Shown here: positions 17,317 through 30,410 of the stretch, piece by piece | Numbering within the stretch: position 1 is the first letter of the stretch | Layout of the letters: each line of letters begins with the position of its first letter | NCBI RefSeq assembly: GCF_004765795.1 | Contig: NZ_SBIV01000006.1 | Coordinates: forward strand, 248,001 to 288,182 | DNA: 40,182 nt | Source: Halorussus marinus | GTDB lineage: Archaea > Halobacteriota > Halobacteria > Halobacteriales > Haladaptataceae | Reading direction: 5' to 3' | The notes under the pieces: model-generated | Database searches by the model: none | The model's input: only the letters and a program-made list of their open reading frames with translations | Told to the model about the DNA's origin: nothing | Made by a program: the position numbers and the translations under genes

Positions 17317-17511
17317 ATGCGCAATCGTCTCATCCGAACGATGAACCGGGCCAAGTACGCGGCCGTCGGCGCCGCGGTCGGCGGTGCCGTGGGCGGGGTA
17401 ATCAGCAGGAACGCCGCGAGCACCGCGGCCGGTATCGGTGCGCTCGTCGGCGCGACGGTCGGCGAGAAGCGGGCTTCGGTGCGGACGCTGGTCGAGGAGA
17501 ACAGAAATTAA
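17317..17511 (+). CDS. Glycine-zipper membrane microprotein, 64 aa
   Basis: MRNRLIRTMNRAKYAAVGAAVGGAVGG...AAGIGALVGATVGEKR; GxxxG repeats. Confidence 0.75.
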   Translation: MRNRLIRTMNRAKYAAVGAAVGGAVGGVISRNAASTAAGIGALVGATVGEKRASVRTLVEENRN

Positions 17512-17552
17512 AAAGGGCGTACGGTGACCTTTGTGCCGGGTGTAAGTTTTAA

Positions 17553-17933
17553 CTAACTACCGAAGGTGAAGACGGTAGCGTTTTGAGCGTTCCCATCGAC
17601 ATTGTAGGCTACCACGGAGTTGGAACTACCACTGCAAGTGATGGTCTGACCGACTTGAGTAGTGTGTTTAGTTGCCCAACCAGAGTCACCGGGACCATCT
17701 ACGGCCGAGCATTTGATTCCAGTCGTACTGGGGCCAAGTGAATTAAGCGTGACTTCGTTGGTGCCACTAGCCGCCGAAACGCCTGCTGAGGCGTTCTGGT
17801 TGACGTTCTCGCCGAGGCCGAGCACGAACGTGCCGATGACGGCGGCCAGAATCACCGTGATGGCGACCATCAGGATGACCCCGATCACCGGGCTCACCGC
17901 GTCGTCGTCCGTGAGTAGTGTTTTGAAGTTCAT
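17553..17933 (-). CDS. pilA: Archaeal type IV pilin, PilA-type
   Basis: Class III signal ([10 protein letters not shown]) with the canonical haloarchaeal H-domain [29 protein letters not shown]; two Cys in the globular part. Confidence 0.93.
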
Positions 17934-17952
17934 GAGTTGTGTTTCTCGTTTG

Positions 17953-18077
17953 GCACGGTATCATCTCTGAGAAGTGGCCGCACATTTTATGCCGAACGAC
18001 CGAGTACTTTGGTCCGTCGGCGGGGAGAGCCTGTCGAAGCCGCCCCACGTCCGACACTTCTCTGTAATGATACGTGC
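17953..18077 (-). promoter_or_regulatory. Structured 5' leader of pilin 1
   Basis: TATA box TTTATATA at 18102-18109 (minus) places the start near 18077; leader ends pair: GCACGUAUCAU..GAGAAGUG with CACUUCUC..AUGAUACCGUGC. Confidence 0.65.
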
Positions 18078-18532
18078 TTAGGTGAGCGTTAAGCTCACGA
18101 GTATATAAAAACTTCTCTACCTAAACGTATGGTTATATTATTCGCTCTTTTCGTTTCCCATTATCCCCCAACAGATAGCATTAGGGCTGGTTAAAACGGG
18201 TCTAAGCCGTCCCATAGAAAAATCAACCGATGGCGAGAGACTACGAGGATCCTTATCTCGAAATCTATGTTGAGCGATTTGGTGAGAGAGTGAGCGCGCT
18301 CGAAACCACCGTCCTCGACCCCGACGACATCGAGATAAAACAGTACACCGATCGCGACTCCTCAGAACTCCGGCGAATCGTCCAAGTCGAACGCGAGTCG
18401 GGACTCGATCCGGCTCTCGCGACCGGACCAGAGCCTTCGGCCCACCGCACTCGCGGCGGGTCTGCACCCCGAAAACCGTCGTCTTCGTCGAACTCGACGC
18501 GCCTCGGCGCGCGCTCTCGGGACCGCATCGGC

Positions 18533-19759
18533 TCACCCGTCGTCCCAGAACAACAGGCCGATCAGCGCGCTACCGAGCGCGCATCCCGCCAACAGCACGA
18601 ACGCCTCGTCGAACCGACCTCGGTCGCCGAGCGCGCCGACGATCGTGGGGGAGGTCGCCGCCAGCAACAGGTACCCGGTCCTGAGCAGTCCGAACCCGGT
18701 CCCCTGCATCTCGGTCGGCAGGCTGTCGACCACGCCCGCCTGCGCGATCGGCCAGAACCCGAGCTGTGCGCTCGCGAGGACTGCGAGTACCACCAACAGC
18801 CAGACCTCGTCGGTCGCGAGCAGGAGCGCGATCGCGCTCGCCGACAGGAAGCTGAACCCGAGTAGGGTCGGCCTGTCGCCGACCGAGTCGGCCAACACGC
18901 CGGCCAGCGGCTGGACGAGGATGCCCGACGCGAAAAACGCGCTGTAGAGGAGCGCCGCCGAGCCCTCCGAGAGCCCCTTTATCGACACGAGGTAGGTCGG
19001 GAAGAAGCTCGTGAACCCCTGATAGACGATCGACATCAGGAGCATCGCCGCGGTGAGCACGAGGGTCTGTCGCCCGGTGACTTCGGCGACGAACCGCCGG
19101 AGGGCGTCCGCCGAGAGGTCGTCGGCCACGCTCTCTTGGCCGGAGGTGCGGGCGGGCACGGCGACCCAGAGTCCGACGGCCGCCAGCGCGAACAGCGGCG
19201 TCGCGGCCGCGAACCCGAGCCGCCAACTCGCGGCGCCGGCCACGACGCCCGCCCCGGCCGGCAGGAGGACGGTCCCGAGGTTCCCGGCGGCCGAGCTGAC
19301 CCCCATCGCCGTCGCCGTCCGATCGGGATAGACGTCCGCGAGCGAGGTGAATCGGGTGGTCGCGTAGACGCCGGTCGCCGACCCCAGCAGGACGAAGCCG
19401 GCGAACAGCGCGAGCGTCGACCACGCGAGCGCGCTGGCCGCGAGCGCCACGATCGCGAGCGCCGAACTCGCCACGAGGACGGCCCGTTCGCCGATCCAGT
19501 CGCCGAGGACGCCACCGGGGAACTGCAACAGCGCGTAGGTGAACCAGAGCGTGCTCAAGAGCAGTCCCGCGGTCGAGAGTCCGATCCCGAAGTCCGCGCG
19601 GATGTACGGAACCAGCGTCGGCGCCGAGAGCCTGACCCCGAGTCCGAGAAACCAGCCGAACGCGATGGTGAACAGAATCCGTCCCCGCCCGTCGCTCGCG
19701 AGATCCGACGCGACCGCACGTACGCGAGCGGAGAGTCCGGAGGAGCCGAACGGAGTCAC
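18533..19759 (-). CDS. MFS transporter
   Basis: About 12 hydrophobic segments; motif A GVLGDWIGER and its repeat GVLADSVGDR. Confidence 0.92.
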   Translation of the reverse strand: MTPFGSSGLSARVRAVASDLASDGRGRILFTIAFGWFLGLGVRLSAPTLVPYIRADFGIGLSTAGLLLSTLWFTYALLQFPGGVLGDWIGERAVLVASSALAIVALAASALAWSTLALFAGFVLLGSATGVYATTRFTSLADVYPDRTATAMGVSSAAGNLGTVLLPAGAGVVAGAASWRLGFAAATPLFALAAVGLWVAVPARTSGQESVADDLSADALRRFVAEVTGRQTLVLTAAMLLMSIVYQGFTSFFPTYLVSIKGLSEGSAALLYSAFFASGILVQPLAGVLADSVGDRPTLLGFSFLSASAIALLLATDEVWLLVVLAVLASAQLGFWPIAQAGVVDSLPTEMQGTGFGLLRTGYLLLAATSPTIVGALGDRGRFDEAFVLLAGCALGSALIGLLFWDDG

Positions 19760-20029
19760 GTCGCCACACTGGTCCGAGTAGCGGCTTATCTGTTGGCATC
19801 CCGGAGAGGGACGGCGCCTTTCTCCGGGCTCGCCGCCGAGACCGTGCGGGCTGGTAGCAATGGTCGGAAAATGTTAACACTGTAACACCTGTACGATACG
19901 ATCCCCATGATGGACGACCAGCACAGTTGACCCAGCGCCCAGTCAGGGAAGTACGTACCGCGTACATCCGTGGCGGGGCCTCCGAACCCGTTCGCCAGAC
20001 ACGCCGACTACCACCCACTCACCCCGCCA

Positions 20030-20305
20030 ATGAACGAACAACGAGATCCGCACCGATCGACACGAACCGCCCGCCCAGAGTACCGCGCGCCCCGGACGTG
20101 GACCGGCCTCGCCCTGTACGTCGGGTTCGGCGCGCTCGTCCCGCTGGCGCTGTTCGCGCTCGCGCATCCGACGGCCGTCGCGGCCGCGATCGCCGGTCTC
20201 AGCGTCGGCCTGCTCGCCCGACCGCTCGGTCACCGACTGACCCGCCGGTCGGGTCGAGTCGAGCGTCCGACCAACGCCGTCGGACGCGCCGCGTCCGAGG
20301 AGTGA
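20030..20305 (+). CDS. Small membrane protein, 91 aa
   Basis: ATG at 20030; two hydrophobic segments; followed by a T-run (gcttttttc) that could act as a terminator. Confidence 0.65.
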   Translation: MNEQRDPHRSTRTARPEYRAPRTWTGLALYVGFGALVPLALFALAHPTAVAAAIAGLSVGLLARPLGHRLTRRSGRVERPTNAVGRAASEE

Positions 20306-20456
20306 CCGCCCGCTTTTTTCGAGGACGCCGCCGACGGCCGCTCGGCTTCGGAACGTGGCGCTGTTTCGATTCGTCGGACGCGTCGGTACACGATAACTGA
20401 TACCGCCGATTTCAGTACCCGGGGTTTTTTCAATTTGGTTCGGAAATATTCCGCGT

Positions 20457-22598
20457 GTGATGAACAGTTTGGGAGGTGAGCGCTCCGCGTCTCCGGACGA
20501 GACCGCCGTCGGCACGCTCTCTTTCGAAGTCGACGCGGGCGACTGCGGCGTCACCGTCGTCGACTCGATAGAGCGACACCGCTACTCGGTCGAGACCTCC
20601 CGCCCGGTCGCTCCCACGCCCGTGGACGTCGACGACTTTCTGTTTCCCGCGGATGCGGGTGTCGCGATAACGACCGAGAGCCTCACGCTCCCGACGGTCG
20701 TCCCGGTCTACGTCAGGGATCAGACCGGCGACATGCTCGCGGAGGCCGAACACTTCGCCGACGAGGCCTTCGACGAGGGCGTCTACAGCATCGAACTCAA
20801 CGCCCCGATCAAGCTCTATCTGAACGTGAGCGGTCCGCTCGCGGTTACCTCGGACATGGAACACATGCAGTTCGAGTTCGGCTCGGAGACGGAGGTGTTG
20901 CTCGGCGCGCGCTCGCACCACGAGCATCCGGCCGCGACCGTCACCACGACGGCCGACCCGACCGATATGATGGCGGCGGTCTCGACGTTCGGCTCCGCGC
21001 TCAAGACCACGAGTTGCGAGCGGTCGTATCCGACCCTCCGGGGCCATCCGCCGACGATCGAACTCGGAGACCAACTGGAGATTCCCGACGAGCTGACCGT
21101 CCCCGACACCGGAATCCGGATCGAGATCCCGCCGACGTATCGCGCGGTCTACGTCGCGGCGCCGCTGGCCTACTATCTCGGAGCCACGGTGGTCGAGGGC
21201 GATCGGCCGCGGGTCGTCACCGAGACGGGGTTCGAACACCCCCTCGACACCGAACGGGGCGTGGAAGCCGAGGCCGAACGGCTCCTGAAACAGACGTTCT
21301 TCCTCGACTGTCTGACTCGGACGGAAGGCTACTATCAGGTCGATCTCCACGAGCGGGGCGCGATCGAACCGAGAGTCGATCTCGATTTCGAGCGACTGTA
21401 CGAACAGTCGCCGGCCGAGCAGTTGGAGGCGTATCTCACGGTCCCGTTCTCGGTCGTCGAACCCGAGATCCCCGAGTGGAAGCTGACGTCCCACGTCGAA
21501 CCCGTAGCGACCAGCATCGAAACGCTACCGTTCGTCGTCGAGGATCTGGCCGTCGTTCACACCCCGAAAGAGCGCGAGCCCGCAGACGCGACACAGGAAG
21601 CGGCGGCCGTAGAAGATTTCTTCCGGACGGGCGCGACCGACGAGGCCGCCGAGTTCACCCGGAGCACCGATCGGACGACCCCGACCGACGAGTCCTACGT
21701 CCAACCGGAGTCGGCCGACTCGCTCGAACAAACGTGGGTCGGCGACGGAACGCCCATCGGCGCGAGCAAGGCGACCACCGCGGCGTTCCGCAACCACCTC
21801 AACCGGACGCCGACCGAGGGCGACATCGAGATCACGGTCGTCTGCAACGACCGACAGATGAACGAGGAGCGCGACGCGGTCGACGCCGGCTACGGCTCAC
21901 GCGAAACGCTCCCGTTCGACGTCACCGTCCACCACGATCTGACCACGACCGAACTCCGCGACGTCCTCGCTCGCCAGACCGACTTCCTCCACTACATCGG
22001 CCACATCGACGGCGGCGGCTTCGAGTGTGCCGACGGGAAGTTCGACGCGACGACGCTCGATTCGGTCGGCGTGGACGCGTTCTTGCTGAACGCCTGCCAG
22101 TCGTACGCACAGGGGATGCACCTGCTCGAGGCGGGAAGTATCGCCGGCGTCGTCACCCTGAGCGACGTGATCAACACCGGTGCGGTCCGGGTCGGCCGGA
22201 CGATGGCTCGCCTGCTCAACGCCGGATTTCCGCTTCGGGCGGCGCTCACCATCGCCCGGAACGAGAGCATCGTCGGGGGCAAGTACATCGTGGTCGGCGA
22301 CGGCGGCCTCTCGATCGCACAGGCCGAGAGCGGGACGCCGAACCTCTGTGAGATCGAACGCGACGGCGACGCGTTCACCCTCCGGATGGAGACGTACCCG
22401 ACCGCCCAGACCGCGATGGGGACGCTGATAATCCCTTACATCGAGCAAAACGAGACGCACTTTCTGACGTCGGGGGTCGACGAGGAGTTCTCGATGCGGG
22501 AAGACGAACTGCGTCGATTCCTGAGCCTCGAAGAGGTTCCGATCCGTTTCGACGGGGAACTGCGGTGGAGTACCGACCTCTCGGTCGAGCAGTTGTGA
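20457..22598 (+). CDS. Large protein with C-terminal CHAT/caspase-like (clan CD) protease domain
   Basis: FLHYIGH and FLLNACQS align with CHAT H(F/Y)xGH and LxAC motifs, followed by GVVTLSDV, LLNAGFPLRAAL and YIVVGDG. Start may be ATG 20460. Confidence 0.75.
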   Translation: MMNSLGGERSASPDETAVGTLSFEVDAGDCGVTVVDSIERHRYSVETSRPVAPTPVDVDDFLFPADAGVAITTESLTLPTVVPVYVRDQTGDMLAEAEHFADEAFDEGVYSIELNAPIKLYLNVSGPLAVTSDMEHMQFEFGSETEVLLGARSHHEHPAATVTTTADPTDMMAAVSTFGSALKTTSCERSYPTLRGHPPTIELGDQLEIPDELTVPDTGIRIEIPPTYRAVYVAAPLAYYLGATVVEGDRPRVVTETGFEHPLDTERGVEAEAERLLKQTFFLDCLTRTEGYYQVDLHERGAIEPRVDLDFERLYEQSPAEQLEAYLTVPFSVVEPEIPEWKLTSHVEPVATSIETLPFVVEDLAVVHTPKEREPADATQEAAAVEDFFRTGATDEAAEFTRSTDRTTPTDESYVQPESADSLEQTWVGDGTPIGASKATTAAFRNHLNRTPTEGDIEITVVCNDRQMNEERDAVDAGYGSRETLPFDVTVHHDLTTTELRDVLARQTDFLHYIGHIDGGGFECADGKFDATTLDSVGVDAFLLNACQSYAQGMHLLEAGSIAGVVTLSDVINTGAVRVGRTMARLLNAGFPLRAALTIARNESIVGGKYIVVGDGGLSIAQAESGTPNLCEIERDGDAFTLRMETYPTAQTAMGTLIIPYIEQNETHFLTSGVDEEFSMREDELRRFLSLEEVPIRFDGELRWSTDLSVEQL

Positions 22599-22733
22599 TC
22601 AGGGACCGGCGGTCGAGCCCAGATTCGCGGCCGCCGAGTTGCCCGCTTGTGTCAAAAGTAGACAGATCGTAAAGAGGACGCCGGCCATTCTCGGATTCTG
22701 TGCGATGTAGTCTGCGATGTCTGTTTTGGACAT
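22599..22733 (-). CDS. 44-aa putative secreted peptide precursor (not in ORF track)
   Basis: Manual translation MSKTDIADYIAQNPRMAGVLFTICLLLTQAGNSAAANLGSTAGP; hydrophobic core, SAA/AAA cleavage-like site, AT-rich promoter at 22745-22830. Confidence 0.8.
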   Translation of the reverse strand: MSKTDIADYIAQNPRMAGVLFTICLLLTQAGNSAAANLGSTAGP

Positions 22734-22985
22734 TGCACGACATACTCTTGGATAAAAATATGTGAAATTTTCTAAACAATACTGACAGATAAAATACTGA
22801 CTTTATTATTGTGAATGTTTTATATAAACGAACGAGTTTGAGAGTCATTACATAACACGGTCGGTGGGGTGTAGAACGCTCGTCGGGTGCAATCGCCCGC
22901 TTTTCGAAGCCTATCTTCGCTCTCACCGCGACGAACACGCCGGCACTGCTCGCGGCGTCACACTCACCGTCGAGAGCGCGAACCG

Positions 22986-23387
22986 CTACCCGTCGAAGGT
23001 GTAGACCACTGCGTCTCCGATTCCGTCGCCGAAGGCCACGACGGAGTTCGCGTTCGAACTACAGGAGATCGAATCGCCGACGGTCTCGGTCGCTCCGGGG
23101 CGGTCGCCGTCGTCGTACCGGTCGTTCGACGAGTCCAGATCGTCCCCGGTCTCGTCGGCGTCCGAACACCGAACGCCGTCCGTGTTCGGACCGACCGAGT
23201 CGAGCGTCACCGTCCTGTCTCCCGTCGGGGAGACCCCCGCGGTGGCAGTTTGGTCGACGTCTTGACCGAGTCCGAGCACGAACGTCCCGATGAGCGCGGA
23301 CAGAACCGCGGTGGTGGCGACCAGCAGGACGACGCCGATCACCGGCGAAACGCCGGTCTCGTCTGCGAGTAACTGTTTCGGGTTCAT
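22986..23387 (-). CDS. Second archaeal type IV pilin, paralogue of 17553-17933
   Basis: Start MNPKQLLADETG/VSPVIG at 23387; variant H-domain; globular part aligns with pilin 1 (VTLxSxGPxTxGxxCS, IxCS..NSVVA). Confidence 0.88.
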   Translation of the reverse strand: MNPKQLLADETGVSPVIGVVLLVATTAVLSALIGTFVLGLGQDVDQTATAGVSPTGDRTVTLDSVGPNTDGVRCSDADETGDDLDSSNDRYDDGDRPGATETVGDSISCSSNANSVVAFGDGIGDAVVYTFDG

Positions 23388-23402
23388 CGTTTGGGTCTCT
23401 CG

Positions 23403-23476
23403 GCACTGCATCGGCGCCGACACGCGGTGGCGTTCGCCGACTCGCGGGGTCGATTTCGATCGGCGCCGATACGTGC
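23403..23476 (-). promoter_or_regulatory. Structured 5' leader of pilin 2
   Basis: TTATGTATA at 23499-23507 (minus); leader begins GCACGUAUCGGCGCCGAU and pairs with GUCGGCGCCGAUGCAGUGC (18 bp, one bulge). Confidence 0.62.
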
Positions 23477-23723
23477 TCGGACGCTACTTCCCATCCGCTA
23501 TACATAACCTCTTTGCCATGTAGGTGCCCTCTGGCCGGAGCGGGGGCCTCGAAACCGAGGGAAATCGGCTCTGAGAAGGCGGCTCTACCGACGGTGTTCG
23601 TCTCTGACCGGTGGCCGGCGATGCGAACCATTCAGAGCGCTTACTGGCTCTCTCGGACGTATCAAACACGGGAGCGATGCCGGCGGCGGAACTCCTTTAG
23701 CCTCCGCTCGCCTCCTACTCGGT

Positions 23724-26700
23724 ATGTCTGCCCCCGGGCCATCCGAGGGAATCTACGCCGAGACACTGGCGGTGTTCGGCGAGTCGACACACACACCAGA
23801 ACCCCTCAGTACCACCGAGGTCGCCGACGCCCTCGACGTTCCGCGGCGGACCGCGTACAAACGACTCGATACCCTCGCCGAGCGTGGCGACGTCGCCACC
23901 AAGAAGGTCGGCGCGAGTGCCCGCGTCTGGTGGCGCCCTGACGCGTCTCGGCCGACCGCCCCCTCCGAGACCACTGCTCCGAGGGTCGAGTCGATGATCG
24001 ACGTCCTCGACGGCGCCGGGGTCGGCGTGTTCGTCCTCGACGCGGACTTCGAGGTCGCGCGGATCAACGACGCCACCGAGCGGTACTTCGGACTCGACCG
24101 CGAGGACGTCGTCGGTCGCGACAAACGCGGGCTCGTCGAGGATTCCATCGCGGACCGCGTCGACGACGCGACCGCGTTCGCCGACACCGTTCTCGCGACC
24201 TACGACGACAACACGGACACCGAGTGCTTCGAGTGTCGGGTCACCCCGGGCGCGGACCGCGAGCCCCGGTGGCTCGAACACTGGAGCAAGCCCATCGACG
24301 CCGGCCGGTACGCGGGCGGGCGCATCGAACTCTACTACGACATCACCGACCAGAAACACTCCGAGCAGGCGCTCGCTCAGGAGCGGAGTCTCACCGACCG
24401 CCTGCTGGAGACCGCGCCGATTCGCCTCGCCATCTTCCGGCCCGACGGGTCGGTCGAGCGGATGAACTCCCGGGTCCGTCGGGAACTCGGCCTCGAGGAC
24501 GCGGACCTCTCGGCGTTCGAGCTCGGCGACTTCGACGTGTACGATCCGGACGGCGATTCGTTGCCCGTCGAGCGCCACCCCGTCTCGCGCGTGCTCGAAA
24601 CCGGCGAGCCGGTCCGAGGGGAGGTGATCCAACACGAGACCCCGGACGGCGACCGGCGGTGGGTGTCGCTCAACGCCGCCCCGCTGTTCGACGCCGACGG
24701 CGACCTCGAACGCGTCGTGGTCACCGGCAAGGACATCACGGCGCTAAAACGGACCGAGCGAGCGCTCGCCCGGCAACGCGATCAGCTCCAGCTCGAACTC
24801 GACGACGTGTTCACGCGCATCACCGACGGCATGCTCGCGGTCGACCTCGACTGGACGGTCACCTACGTCAACGACCACGCCAAGCACCTCCTCGGCCGTC
24901 CCGACGCAGACCTCCGCGGGAAGAATCTCTGGGAGGCGTTCCCGGAACAGGTCGGCTCCGACGCGTGGGAGCGGTATCACGAGGCGATCGAGACACAGCG
25001 ACCGATCACGTTCGAGACCCGGTCGGCGGAGGTCGGCGGGTGGGTCCAAGCCCGCGCGTACCCCTCCGAGACCGGGCTCTCGATCTACTTCCGGGACATC
25101 ACCGAGCGCAAGGAGCGAGAGGCCCGACTCGAGGAGGCCCGGAATCGCTACCAGACCCTCGTCGAGCACTTCCCGAACGGGGCGGTCGCGCTCGTCGACG
25201 CCGACGAAGACGGGAGACTCCGGTACGTCACCGTCGGCGGCACCGCGATCGAATCGGCGGGGGTCGACCTCGAGGACCTCGAGGGCCAACCGCTCCGCGA
25301 GCGCCTGCCGCCCGAGATCGTCGACGAAATCGCCCCGCACTACGAGGCCGCGCTCGACGGCGAGCAACGCGTCTTTCAGTCGGCGTTCGGCGACCGCGTC
25401 CATCAGTTCCGGATGGTCCCGGTCCACACCGACGACGGCGAGGTGTTCGCCGCGCTCGGCATGTCCCAGGACATCACCGAGCTGAAAGCCCGCGAACGCG
25501 AACTCGAACGCTACGAGACCATCGTCGAAACGGTCGACGACGGCATCTACGCCCTCGACGACGACCTCGAGTTAACGATGGTGAACTCCGCGCTCGCCGA
25601 ACTGATCGGGGACGACCGCGAGGACCTCCTCGGCACGTCGGCCCGAACCATCACCGACGACGTCTGGGACGGGGTGGCCCAACTGGAGGCCGAGATGAGA
25701 ACCGGGGACCGCTCGTCGGCGAGCGTCGAGTGCACGCTCGAAGCCGCGGACGGCGATCGCATCCCGGTGGAGGCGACGTGGGTGCTTCGGTCGACCGACG
25801 ACGCCGACGAACGCGTCGGTACCGTCCGGGACGTCAGCGACCGGAAAGCCCGCGAGCGAGAGCTTCAGAACCGCGTCCAGCAACAGCGGGCGCTCGCGGA
25901 GTTCTCCCAGCACGCGCTCGAAGATCGGTCGCTCGACGAACTGTTCGACGAGGCGGTCGAACGCGTCGCCGACGTCCTCGATCACGACTACTGCAAGGTG
26001 CTGGAACTGCTCCCCGAGGCCGACGAACTCCGGTTGCGAAACGGCGTCGGGTGGCGCGAGGGCATCGTCGGGGAGGCGACGGTCGCGGACGACCGGTCCT
26101 CACAGGCCGGGTACACCCTCATCGCGGAGGAACCGGTGGTGGTCGAGGACCTCGCGAGCGAAGACCGATTCAGCGGCCCGGCGCTCCTGACCGACCACGA
26201 CGTTCAGGGAGGGATCAGCACCGTGGTCGGGTCCTACGACGAGCCGTGGGGGATTCTGGGAACCCACGACACCGACCGCCAGTCGTACGCCGACCACGAC
26301 GTCCAGTTCGTCCAGAGCATGGCGAACATCCTGACGAGCGCCATTCGGCGCTACGAGCGCGAACAACAGCTCGAACGCTACGAGACCATCATCGAGACGG
26401 CCGACGACGGCGTCTTCGCGCTCGACGCCGACGAGCGGTTCGTCCTGGTCAACGAGGCGTTCTGCGAGCTGACGGGGTACGACCGACAGGAACTGCTTGG
26501 CCGCCACGCGTCGGTGGTCCACAGCGAGCGAGTCAGCAGGGAGGCCGCCGAGCTGAGCGAGCAGGTCGCCGACGGTCTCGGGAGCGTGACGGTGGAGGTG
26601 GAGTTCCCGACCAGAGACGGCGGAACGATCCCGGTCGAGAGTCGGTTCGGCCCGTACCGGTACGACACCGACACGGACGCTCGGGCCGGCATCGTCCGGG

Positions 26701-27356
26701 ACATCTCCGAGCGCAAAGAGCGCGAACAGCGACTCCGGGCCCAAAACGAGCGACTCGAAAGCTTCGCGAGCATGCTCGCCCACGAACTCCGGAACCCGGT
26801 CACCATCGGCCAGATCTACACCCAGCAGTTGTCGACGGACCCAGACCCCACGGCCGTGGAGTACGTCACCGAGGCGTTCGACCGGATCGAGGATATGATC
26901 GACGTGATGCTCGTGTTGACGCGGGGCCGCGACGCCGTCAGCGGCGACGCGACGATCCATCTCGAAGCGGTCGCCCGGGAGGCGTGGGCCGAAGCCCAGA
27001 CCCGGGACGCGACCGTCGACGTGGCGCTCGAAAAGACGATCGAGGCCGACGAGACGTACATCAGTCACCTGTTTCGGAACCTGTTCGAGAACGCCGTCGA
27101 GCACGGTGGGGCCGACGTTACCGTCACGGTCGGCGATCTCCCGGACGGGTTCTACGTCGCCGACGACGGCGAGGGAATCCCGGCCGGGGAGCGCGAGACG
27201 GTGTTCGAGGTGGGGTACACAACCGCCTCCGACACCGGCGGCACCGGGTTGGGGCTGGCGTTCGTCGCCGAGTTGGCCGACGTCTACGAGTGGACGGTGA
27301 CGGTGACCGAGAGCCCGACGGGGGGCGCCAGGTTCGAGTTCCGGGACGACTCGTGA
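23724..27356 (+). CDS. Cytoplasmic sensor histidine kinase: wHTH, about six PAS domains, GAF, HisKA-HATPase
   Basis: N-terminal STTEVADALDVPRRTAYKRL..RVWW HTH; repeated DIT/DVS/DIS PAC ends; GAF; H-box HELRNP, NLFENA, DDGEGI, GTGLGL; no transmembrane segment. Confidence 0.92.
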   Translation: MSAPGPSEGIYAETLAVFGESTHTPEPLSTTEVADALDVPRRTAYKRLDTLAERGDVATKKVGASARVWWRPDASRPTAPSETTAPRVESMIDVLDGAGVGVFVLDADFEVARINDATERYFGLDREDVVGRDKRGLVEDSIADRVDDATAFADTVLATYDDNTDTECFECRVTPGADREPRWLEHWSKPIDAGRYAGGRIELYYDITDQKHSEQALAQERSLTDRLLETAPIRLAIFRPDGSVERMNSRVRRELGLEDADLSAFELGDFDVYDPDGDSLPVERHPVSRVLETGEPVRGEVIQHETPDGDRRWVSLNAAPLFDADGDLERVVVTGKDITALKRTERALARQRDQLQLELDDVFTRITDGMLAVDLDWTVTYVNDHAKHLLGRPDADLRGKNLWEAFPEQVGSDAWERYHEAIETQRPITFETRSAEVGGWVQARAYPSETGLSIYFRDITERKEREARLEEARNRYQTLVEHFPNGAVALVDADEDGRLRYVTVGGTAIESAGVDLEDLEGQPLRERLPPEIVDEIAPHYEAALDGEQRVFQSAFGDRVHQFRMVPVHTDDGEVFAALGMSQDITELKARERELERYETIVETVDDGIYALDDDLELTMVNSALAELIGDDREDLLGTSARTITDDVWDGVAQLEAEMRTGDRSSASVECTLEAADGDRIPVEATWVLRSTDDADERVGTVRDVSDRKARERELQNRVQQQRALAEFSQHALEDRSLDELFDEAVERVADVLDHDYCKVLELLPEADELRLRNGVGWREGIVGEATVADDRSSQAGYTLIAEEPVVVEDLASEDRFSGPALLTDHDVQGGISTVVGSYDEPWGILGTHDTDRQSYADHDVQFVQSMANILTSAIRRYEREQQLERYETIIETADDGVFALDADERFVLVNEAFCELTGYDRQELLGRHASVVHSERVSREAAELSEQVADGLGSVTVEVEFPTRDGGTIPVESRFGPYRYDTDTDARAGIVRDISERKEREQRLRAQNERLESFASMLAHELRNPVTIGQIYTQQLSTDPDPTAVEYVTEAFDRIEDMIDVMLVLTRGRDAVSGDATIHLEAVAREAWAEAQTRDATVDVALEKTIEADETYISHLFRNLFENAVEHGGADVTVTVGDLPDGFYVADDGEGIPAGERETVFEVGYTTASDTGGTGLGLAFVAELADVYEWTVTVTESPTGGARFEFRDDS

Positions 27357-29285: not shown

Positions 29286-30410
29286 TCACTCAAGATCGTC
29301 GAGGTAGCTACGGCGCGATTCCATCCGCCGGAGCAGCTCCGGGTGATCGTAGTGCTGCCGAATCGTCTCCGGCGTCGCGTTCACCTTCTCAGCCAGCACC
29401 TCCGGCGGCCACCCGCAGTCGCGATGCCACGTAATCGAACCCGTCCGGATCCTGTGCGGCGACCGCGCCGACGGGCACCGCTGCTCGCGACCGTGGTCGA
29501 GCGCCTCGCACTCGTCCGGGTCGCGGTTGTGGGGGCAGGTCCCGTACCGACACGGCTGAGTCACGATGTAAAACCGCCGCCGAATCCCGCCCTTCGACAT
29601 CCGTCCGCCGCCCTTCTCCGAAGCAAACAGCGGACGACGACCGTATTCGTCCTCGACGCTCGGTCGATTGAACTCGATGAAATCTCGCAAGATCCGGCCG
29701 AGCTCGTCGGTCAGCGACACCGGGCGCTCACCCTCGCTCTGGTTCTTCAACGGCGTATCCGACTCCGGGCGATGCCGGAAGAACACGAACGGGACCGAAA
29801 CCTCGTCGGTCAGTCCGTCACCATCACCCAGATCGGCCTCCTTGAACAGGCCCTCCTCTTCGAGATTCTCCTCGTGGGCGAGCCGTTCGATGTCGCTCTC
29901 TTCCAGATAGCAGTCCCTGACGTCCAGCGCGTGGAGTGCGCCGAGGCGACAGCCCGTCTCCCACGCCAGCGCGAACAGCGCGTGGTCGACGCTCGCCCGC
30001 TCGAACCGTTCGAGCTTCTCCTGGATGGTCTTCGCGCGGCTCGTCGTGAGCTTCTCACGGTTCGCGCGCTCGGCCTTCGTGAGCGCCGGCACGTCGAGCG
30101 CCCGCGAGAGACCGTCCTCGACCGCGTCGATGTCCTCGCAGAAGTCGAGGAACAGCCGGAGCGTCCCGAGCTGGTTGTTCAGCGTCGACGAATTCAGCTC
30201 TTCACCGCGGCGGTGCGAGTCGAACCGGTAGAGGGTGCGACCGTCGAGCGAGTTCAGGTTCTCGATGCCCTCCTGTTCACACCATCGAACGAACTGATCC
30301 ATCCGATAGCGGTAACTCTGAACCGTCTCCCGGGCCTTCTCGGACTTCTGGCGTTCGATCCACATCTCCATCGCCTCGCGCGGCGCGAGCGGCTGGAGGT
30401 CCTCACTCAT
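29286..30410 (-). CDS. SNJ2-like tyrosine integrase
   Basis: LQPLAPREA N-terminus; catalytic-type GCRLG, PLKN, SPHRIR, HYD; Cys cluster QPC..CPH..C..CP typical of the haloarchaeal SNJ2-type family. Confidence 0.92.
   Translation of the reverse strand: MSEDLQPLAPREAMEMWIERQKSEKARETVQSYRYRMDQFVRWCEQEGIENLNSLDGRTLYRFDSHRRGEELNSSTLNNQLGTLRLFLDFCEDIDAVEDGLSRALDVPALTKAERANREKLTTSRAKTIQEKLERFERASVDHALFALAWETGCRLGALHALDVRDCYLEESDIERLAHEENLEEEGLFKEADLGDGDGLTDEVSVPFVFFRHRPESDTPLKNQSEGERPVSLTDELGRILRDFIEFNRPSVEDEYGRRPLFASEKGGGRMSKGGIRRRFYIVTQPCRYGTCPHNRDPDECEALDHGREQRCPSARSPHRIRTGSITWHRDCGWPPEVLAEKVNATPETIRQHYDHPELLRRMESRRSYLDDLE

Follow-up and report, generated by a model that had tools for sequence, protein, structure and literature searches.

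The pilin genes and their leaders

The window considered here is a stretch of 40,182 nucleotides (nt) from Halorussus marinus (contig NZ_SBIV01000006.1, positions 248,001 to 288,182), and our subject is the folded 5' leader that precedes each of two pilin genes on its minus strand. Pilin 1 (17553..17933, minus) encodes an archaeal type IV pilin of 126 amino acids (aa) with a PilA-type N-terminus (PF07790, E 4.8e-16; TIGR02537). Pilin 2 (22986..23387, minus) encodes a paralogue of 133 aa with a degenerate N-terminus; the two proteins are 50% identical, and the Pilin_N domain (PF07790) is found in both open reading frames, at 59.8 and 42.1 bits against a curated cut-off of 25.2. An original prediction, made from the letters alone, gave coordinates and sequence correctly, but treated 17953-23476 as a single element; what lies there is two genes 5 kb apart, with unrelated genes in between.

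That both genes carry a structured 5' leader is borne out. The pilin 1 leader (17953..18077, minus; 125 nt) folds at -59.7 kcal/mol (z -6.12) and the pilin 2 leader (23403..23476, minus; 74 nt) at -42.7 kcal/mol (z -4.66), and for each of them 0 of 200 shuffles folded as well. In pilin 1, the 5' strand of the terminal helix P1 (18067..18077, minus) pairs with 17964-17953 around one bulged base, and its pairs GCACG/CGUGY are almost invariant among 23 distinct same-genus leaders. The single 3'-strand bulge that had been placed after four base pairs does exist, but its register in pilin 1 is ambiguous, and the minimum free energy (MFE) structure pairs 5 bp first. Helix P2 follows, with its 5' strand (GAGAAGUG) at 18055..18062 (minus) and its partner at 17976-17969, and is paired in 94% of alignment cells. 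The helices lead to an apical three-way junction made of hairpin A (18022..18046, minus; GGGG/CCCC, with GGGGCG invariant), hairpin B (17991..18021, minus), which varies in length, aligns poorly and is paired in 68% of cells, and an unpaired junction strand (17984..17990, minus) whose AAA, A93-A95, is invariant in 20 of 20 leaders. An open, A/C-rich spacer (17934..17952, minus), with GAGA here and GGAGA in most relatives, separates the stem from the pilin 1 AUG.

The pilin 2 leader has the same terminal helix and, by its sequence, the same kind of A/C-rich spacer before the AUG (23388..23402, minus), but a different interior. Extra hairpins had been ascribed to pilin 1 only; pilin 1 has them, and pilin 2 also encloses two small ones. 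The pilin 2 stem arms (23403-23470) are direct repeats of a 10-bp palindrome, TCGGCGCCGA, and the 3' arm buries an in-frame GTG (23423) and an ATG. The two interiors are not significantly similar (their score is equalled or exceeded by 515 of 1000 shuffles), which points to helix replacement between paralogues rather than to column-wise covariation. Both copies would come from one ancestral gene, pilin 2 having retained the outer helix and spacer while its interior was replaced. Since those are the parts that were kept, the closed 5' end would be the common selected feature.

Elsewhere in the genome the motif is rare in this form: there are 20 GCACGTATC sites, three are closed by GATRCNGTGC within 300 nt, and all three precede Pilin_N genes, namely the two in the window and a third at G000:C2:218356. 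The leader of this third pilin (G000:C2:218212-218356) is a near-identical copy of the pilin 1 leader. Divergence has affected its promoter spacer and the C-terminus of the pilin (67% identity), and a tRNA gene lies ~940 nt upstream.

Promoters were scored with a matrix trained on leaderless genes of the same genome, at a threshold of 9. A TATA box had been proposed before each leader. For pilin 1 this stands, with a purine run resembling the B recognition element followed by a TATA box (18102..18117, minus; score 13.7), and for pilin 2 there is a non-consensus TATA-like box (23499..23507, minus) that falls under the threshold at 2.6. Transcription starts of both window genes are predictions; that of pilin 1 is placed 0-3 nt upstream of 18077 by TATA spacing and by Haloferax homologues. 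On the 3' side of pilin 1, a U-rich tract (17503..17514, minus) is a candidate archaeal terminator judging from its sequence, and a scan for bacterial-type terminators found none. Pilin 2 combines its weak promoter score and degenerate conserved N-terminus with the lack of a clear U-tract, and may be a minor or decaying paralogue.

Leader families

Twenty same-genus leaders, with a mean identity of 78% in alignment, share the terminal helix, a GAGAAG/CUUCUC helix, a two-hairpin three-way junction, and the invariant junction AAA. A covariance model of this family, R1, scores the pilin 1 leader at 119 bits. It has matches in 14 of 14 genomes of the genus and in 0 of 136 from elsewhere in the order; the 136, four of them from the same family, were scanned with stricter filters. 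All 19 matches lie immediately upstream of a pilin, and the named ones belong to Halorussus (L037, L083). In tandem pilin operons, the downstream pilins are without an R1-type leader. R1 does not match the pilin 2 leader at E<=1, and no homologue of the pilin 2 leader was found in 19 other genomes of the genus. As R1 reaches neither other genera nor pilin 2, we do not claim cross-genus homology of the leaders.

Other genera have families of their own. Two such families occur in the Halorubrum group (L071, L185-L196; L197-L213), one with a long leader that has a three-way junction and an invariant GUUAA, the other with a shorter leader closed by CCAGC/GCUGG. Across 11 Halorubrum-type leaders a two-hairpin junction followed by UUAA is invariant. 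Tandem pilin arrays of Haloferax (L043, L047, L048, L052, L060, L163, L173) have spacers of ~100 nt with a U-tract, and a TTTAGGTTCAA-like motif recurs ~35-45 nt before their downstream pilins; perhaps these are internal promoters.

The original prediction had proposed an Rfam scan, and this gave no family match to the leaders: Rfam 15 had no matches in the window at gathering score, and hits at looser E-values were chance-level and off the leaders. In six related loci it returned just one tRNA.

Distribution across the order

To compare leaders without relying on sequence, starts were predicted from TATA boxes for 138 promoter-proximal pilin genes (loci L001-L134), leaving aside tandem genes <60 nt apart and genes with <210 nt upstream. 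A leader was called closed if a stem ran from <=5 nt after the start to 3-35 nt before the AUG. A promoter over threshold was found for 99 of the 138 genes, 87 of these had leaders of at least 40 nt, and 63 of the 87 were closed. The closed leaders come from 16 named genera besides that of R1; with the R1 family set aside, 40 of 64 were closed. The control set was 1260 genes of this genome. A promoter was found for 453 of them, 219 came out as leaderless and 163 with long leaders, and 23 of the long leaders were closed. The difference between the 64 non-R1 pilin leaders and the controls has a Fisher p of 2e-12, a value that overstates the case because kin are not independent.

This TATA-first screen replaced an earlier, noisy stem-first one, in which 144 of 500 control upstream regions had a stem; once a TATA box 20-36 nt upstream was also required, the figures were 24 of 46 pilins versus 2 of 85 controls. 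The strong closed controls include the third pilin, a tRNA, a surface glycoprotein, rpl7ae and rps15. The last serves as a positive control of the screen, because the rps15 leader is a published Halobacteria r-leader candidate (PMC7247131; papers are cited here by PMC number). Closed 5' stems were also recorded individually (L227, L228, L229, L230, L231, G000) for a 1597-aa surface glycoprotein, rpl7ae, rps15, a coiled-coil protein, and an unknown 190-aa protein.

The prediction had concerned pilins, and the feature is not confined to them: archaellin and surface-glycoprotein leaders have the same layout. Across the order, 24 of 25 archaellin first genes with a promoter (L233-L261) are leadered and 11 scored as closed; mostly there is a short 5' hairpin that ends ~9-16 nt before the AUG. 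This genome's own archaellin (L232; G000:C4:283595-283626) is among those with a leader.

Start sites and read data in homologues

Three genes of Haloferax volcanii, HVO_0972, HVO_2062 and HVO_A0632, are those that we take to be pilA1, pilA2 and pilA5. Their mapped 5' untranslated regions (UTRs) measure 68 and 91 nt, 105 nt (coverage 2645), and 82 nt, respectively (PMC4983044 supplement). These lengths stand out in an organism in which 72% of coding transcripts are leaderless and structured leaders are considered atypical (PMC4983044); the prediction's premise that most haloarchaeal mRNAs are leaderless is thus sound. A further start, at 2319839, is listed as "previously known RNA HVO_2451s" (PMC4983044, Supplementary Table S1), 104 nt from the HVO_2451 gene start at 2319735 (PMC8303175 supplement). 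Two processing sites are given 7 and 18 nt inside HVO_2451 (PMC8303175 supplement). Among the rows listed in the start-site table, there is no primary start for csg (HVO_2072) or for HVO_1210/1211.

The mapped starts fall at the foot of the stem, and so away from the ATG, as had been expected. The beginning of the HVO_A0632 gene coincides with that of an annotated pilin in L036, and with its 82-nt UTR on pHV4 the stem begins 2 nt after the transcription start. When the 104-nt (HVO_2451) and 68-nt (HVO_0972) lengths are transferred to Haloferax homologues with matching promoters, the stem begins 1 and 4 nt downstream of the start, respectively. For the 105-nt UTR of HVO_2062, the homologue L262 has a different promoter, and its leader closes only with the start from its own TATA box.

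Reads from four runs of two studies were mapped to L156, a homologous locus of genome G181. In run X24, read depth drops at the predicted start (~2029), from 38.5 to 7.9 to 0.9, coverage continues into the gene, and the leader has no excess over the coding bin. In runs X21-X23, all from one study, leader depth exceeds that of the neighbouring coding bin ~2- to 17-fold, and short fragments end at 1913-1929, near the AUG; the upstream background in these runs is high.

Signals at the level of RNA

Three plain MAFFT alignments were made, of the R1 family, of the 11 Halorubrum-type leaders, and of 19 Haloferax leaders; in these, 87-94% of cells pair, versus 30-50% in slid controls. For the R1 family, the consensus that RNAalifold derived was poor, with 16 pairs and one of them compensated, and a hand-set structure took its place. 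An R1-fitted alignment has covariation above shuffles (0 of 500) and nine pairs with double changes, although this alignment leans to the model and six of the nine pairs lie in the badly aligned hairpin B.

Other signals do not depend on covariation. Transitions that make a wobble pair occur in 34 stem columns versus 17 for those that make A.C (p 0.012, with no tree correction). Of the 63 closed leaders, 46 fold better in the sense than in the antisense direction; among controls it is 45 of 101. In the 64 non-R1 leaders, pairing of the first 18 nt with the leader's own 3' end has an energy of -16.5 kcal/mol, versus -12.2 in cross pairings, the corresponding values for control leaders being -11.2 and -10.6. 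Wobble bias, strand asymmetry, and own-versus-cross pairing favour an RNA structure. Structure is conserved over sequence between genera and between the two window paralogues; inside a genus the leaders have highly conserved sequences and weak covariation.

The region around the start codon is open. In 57 of the 63 predicted closed leaders, the stem sets in 0-2 nt after the start (closure itself being defined as <=5 nt). The stem ends 10-31 nt before the AUG, positions -10 to +3 have a mean unpaired probability of 0.77, and the spacer is 47% A and 7% U. A Shine-Dalgarno (SD) 4-mer is present in only 27 of 63 spacers. In H. volcanii there is no SD use at 5' UTRs and no scanning from the 5' end (PMC3986360), so a stem at the front of the leader would not necessarily impede initiation. 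The one candidate swap examined, in which UCUC pairs with the downstream GAGA, is 6.3-22.5 kcal/mol worse in 23 of 23 R1 leaders (20.1 in pilin 1).

Two known motifs were also looked for. The bulge-helix-bulge substrate of EndA (3-4-3) was found in 0 of 63 MFE structures, in a scan for the canonical form that had no positive control. A K-turn scan gave three matches in 63, and missed its positive control, the rpl7ae leader.

What the leader may do

The fold, its distribution, the position of the start sites in homologues, and the open AUG are best joined, with a probability of about 0.6, by reading the element as the 5' untranslated leader of haloarchaeal PilA-type pilin mRNAs that acts, by analogy, as a 5'-end stabiliser. 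Transcription would start 0-4 nt before a long interrupted stem, the 3' strand of which would end 10-25 nt ahead of the AUG, and the A/C-rich, mostly unpaired strip between stem and AUG would be the landing site of the ribosome. The paired 5' end would deny single-stranded entry to 5'-end-dependent decay, and an abundant filament-subunit mRNA would thereby live longer. A candidate for the enzyme is aRNase J, a 5'-3' exoribonuclease of Euryarchaeota (PMC7144898), which this genome encodes (TIGR00649, above cut-off); both its involvement and the effect of the stem on half-life are argued from analogy. The earlier suggestion of a role in stability or translational control is therefore kept in its first half, stability being the best fit. 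Its second half is disfavoured as far as occlusion is concerned, with the start outside the stem and the alternative fold 6-22 kcal/mol worse.

Several observations weigh against this reading. The most highly covered genes of H. volcanii are mostly leaderless (PMC4983044). No promoter above threshold was found for 39 of the 138 pilin genes, five are predicted leaderless, and 24 long leaders are not closed. The promoter of pilin 2 is weak (2.6 versus 13.7 for pilin 1) and its transcription uncertain. The word "covarying" in the original prediction was too strong: the interiors cannot be aligned, and the three plain alignments are at or below shuffles, their covariation scores being reached by 146 of 500 (R1 family), 334 of 500 (Halorubrum-type) and 498 of 500 (Haloferax). 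Lastly, a short hairpin suffices for a stabiliser, yet the R1 family keeps an invariant unpaired GGGGCG and AAA, and 38 of 63 closed leaders enclose at least two hairpins. Stabilisation does not explain why leaders of the R1 and Halorubrum families are so long and keep invariant bases in the junction; a bound factor or a released small RNA could.

The alternative that survives best takes up this point. The apical three-way junction would bind a protein or small molecule that tunes the stability or translation of pilin mRNA, with the stem as a scaffold. The invariant unpaired junction bases in 20 of 20 same-genus leaders and the similar junction with invariant UUAA in 11 Halorubrum-type leaders speak for binding, as does the presence among the closed controls of rps15, with its published r-leader candidate. 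On the other hand, the interior is replaced in pilin 2, R1 has 0 of 136 matches outside the genus, 25 of 63 closed pilin leaders have a single hairpin, and no expression platform is evident; we regard junction binding as unlikely. A similarly long shot is that the junction is a pilin-specific regulatory RNA, either factor-bound or released as HVO_2451s, that couples the amount of pilin to the change between swimming and surface attachment, with pilin 2 uncoupled from it.

It is considerably less probable that cleavage near the AUG releases the leader as a stable small RNA with its own role in trans. The listing of the HVO_2451 start as a known RNA, the processing sites just inside that gene, and the deeper leader coverage with its short fragments in X21-X23 would all fit. 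However, the excess comes from one study with high upstream background and is absent from X24, a stabilising stem would itself leave a nuclease-resistant decay remnant, and the leader sequences are not conserved between genera.

Two further explanations are improbable to much the same degree. The first is a riboswitch or RNA thermometer, in which UUCUC would exchange its partner, the 5' GAGAA, for the GAGA near the AUG and so hide the ribosome-binding region. GAGA does occur in both the P2 5' strand and the spacer, and an SD-masking stem-loop has been predicted for Halobacterium pilB1 (PMC4292770). Against this stand the cost of the swapped fold in all 23 R1 leaders, the paucity of SD 4-mers together with the absence of SD use at 5' UTRs in H. 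volcanii (PMC3986360), and the lack of an Rfam match; an open AUG region and the failure of the one candidate swap to compete make a riboswitch unlikely. The second, largely refuted already, is that inherited promoter-proximal sequence folds incidentally in GC-rich DNA. The pilin genes are indeed paralogues, a stem of at least 12 bp near the AUG was found in those 144 of 500 control regions, and covariation is weak, but the z-scores correct for composition, stem plus TATA box separates pilins from controls (24 of 46 versus 2 of 85), and the layout recurs in many genera with unrelated sequences.

Least probable of all is a DNA-level inverted repeat (a recombination site, mobile-element end, or factor palindrome) tied to pilin shuffling, for although the pilin 2 arms are direct repeats of a palindrome and the window holds an integrase-like gene, strand asymmetry and G-U bias speak for RNA, 19 of 19 R1 matches stand directly before a pilin, the stem begins at the transcription start, and the stem was seen neither in copies remote from promoters nor with target-site duplications or recombination products.

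Other features of the window

Between the pilins, a gene at 20457-22598 (plus) encodes a 713-aa acidic protein with no Pfam or NCBIfam match, and an AT-rich region at 22700-22860 is recorded as lying before it. A large HTH-PAS-GAF histidine kinase gene (23724-27356, plus) is divergent from pilin 2. The tyrosine-integrase-like gene lies at 29286-30410 (minus; Phage_int_SAM_1, E 3.9e-9).

Relation to known systems

In Escherichia coli, 5'-terminal stem-loops stabilise the ompA and papA mRNAs. The pilin leaders are like these in that an abundant mRNA for an envelope protein or pilin has a stem a few nucleotides from its 5' end, with an open start behind it. They differ in having an archaeal host whose mRNAs are mostly leaderless, in being much longer (up to ~125 nt) with a three-way junction, and in the enzymes, which are RppH and RNase E there and would be an aRNase J-type enzyme here. 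The leader thus resembles a 5'-terminal stabiliser; this is an analogy, and membership of that class is not claimed.

A second comparison is with HVO_2451s, whose 5' end lies 104 nt upstream of HVO_2451 and whose promoter matches that of the Haloferax pilin leader in L054. It is catalogued as a small RNA (sRNA), not as a pilin leader, is unrelated to the window leader at the level of the model, and is not named in any open full-text paper searched. Most likely, HVO_2451s is the pilin leader class seen as a small RNA.

The Halobacteria S15 leader candidate (PMC7247131) is likewise a long, structured haloarchaeal 5' leader with a multistem junction, and the same screen recovers the rps15 leader. 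The S15 leader mimics rRNA and so has an obvious ligand, whereas a membrane-bound pilin is an unlikely RNA ligand, and the pilin leaders match no Rfam leader model. The pilB1 gene of Halobacterium salinarum (PMC4292770) is a haloarchaeal pilus gene with a mapped 5' UTR and a predicted stem-loop. It encodes the assembly ATPase, and the predicted stem there would cover the SD and start codon, which are open here.

In the open literature searched we found no description of pilA leaders, and the available portion of an archaellation review (PMC10117864) holds no passage on leaders; subscription papers and the supplements of sRNA and RNA-motif catalogues, which lie beyond this scope, may bear on novelty. 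The folded pilin leader is real and uncatalogued, and most likely a stability device rather than a switch.

Implications

There is an order-wide exception to the leaderless model of haloarchaeal transcripts: the mRNAs of filament subunits, pilins and archaellins alike, begin with paired 5' ends. With them, decay that depends on the mRNA 5' end in haloarchaea can be tested directly in H. volcanii, and at least one listed sRNA would seem to be a pilin leader. The leader is also a candidate portable stabiliser for haloarchaeal expression vectors. We also infer that plasmid-borne pilA genes without their own leaders may lack native regulation.

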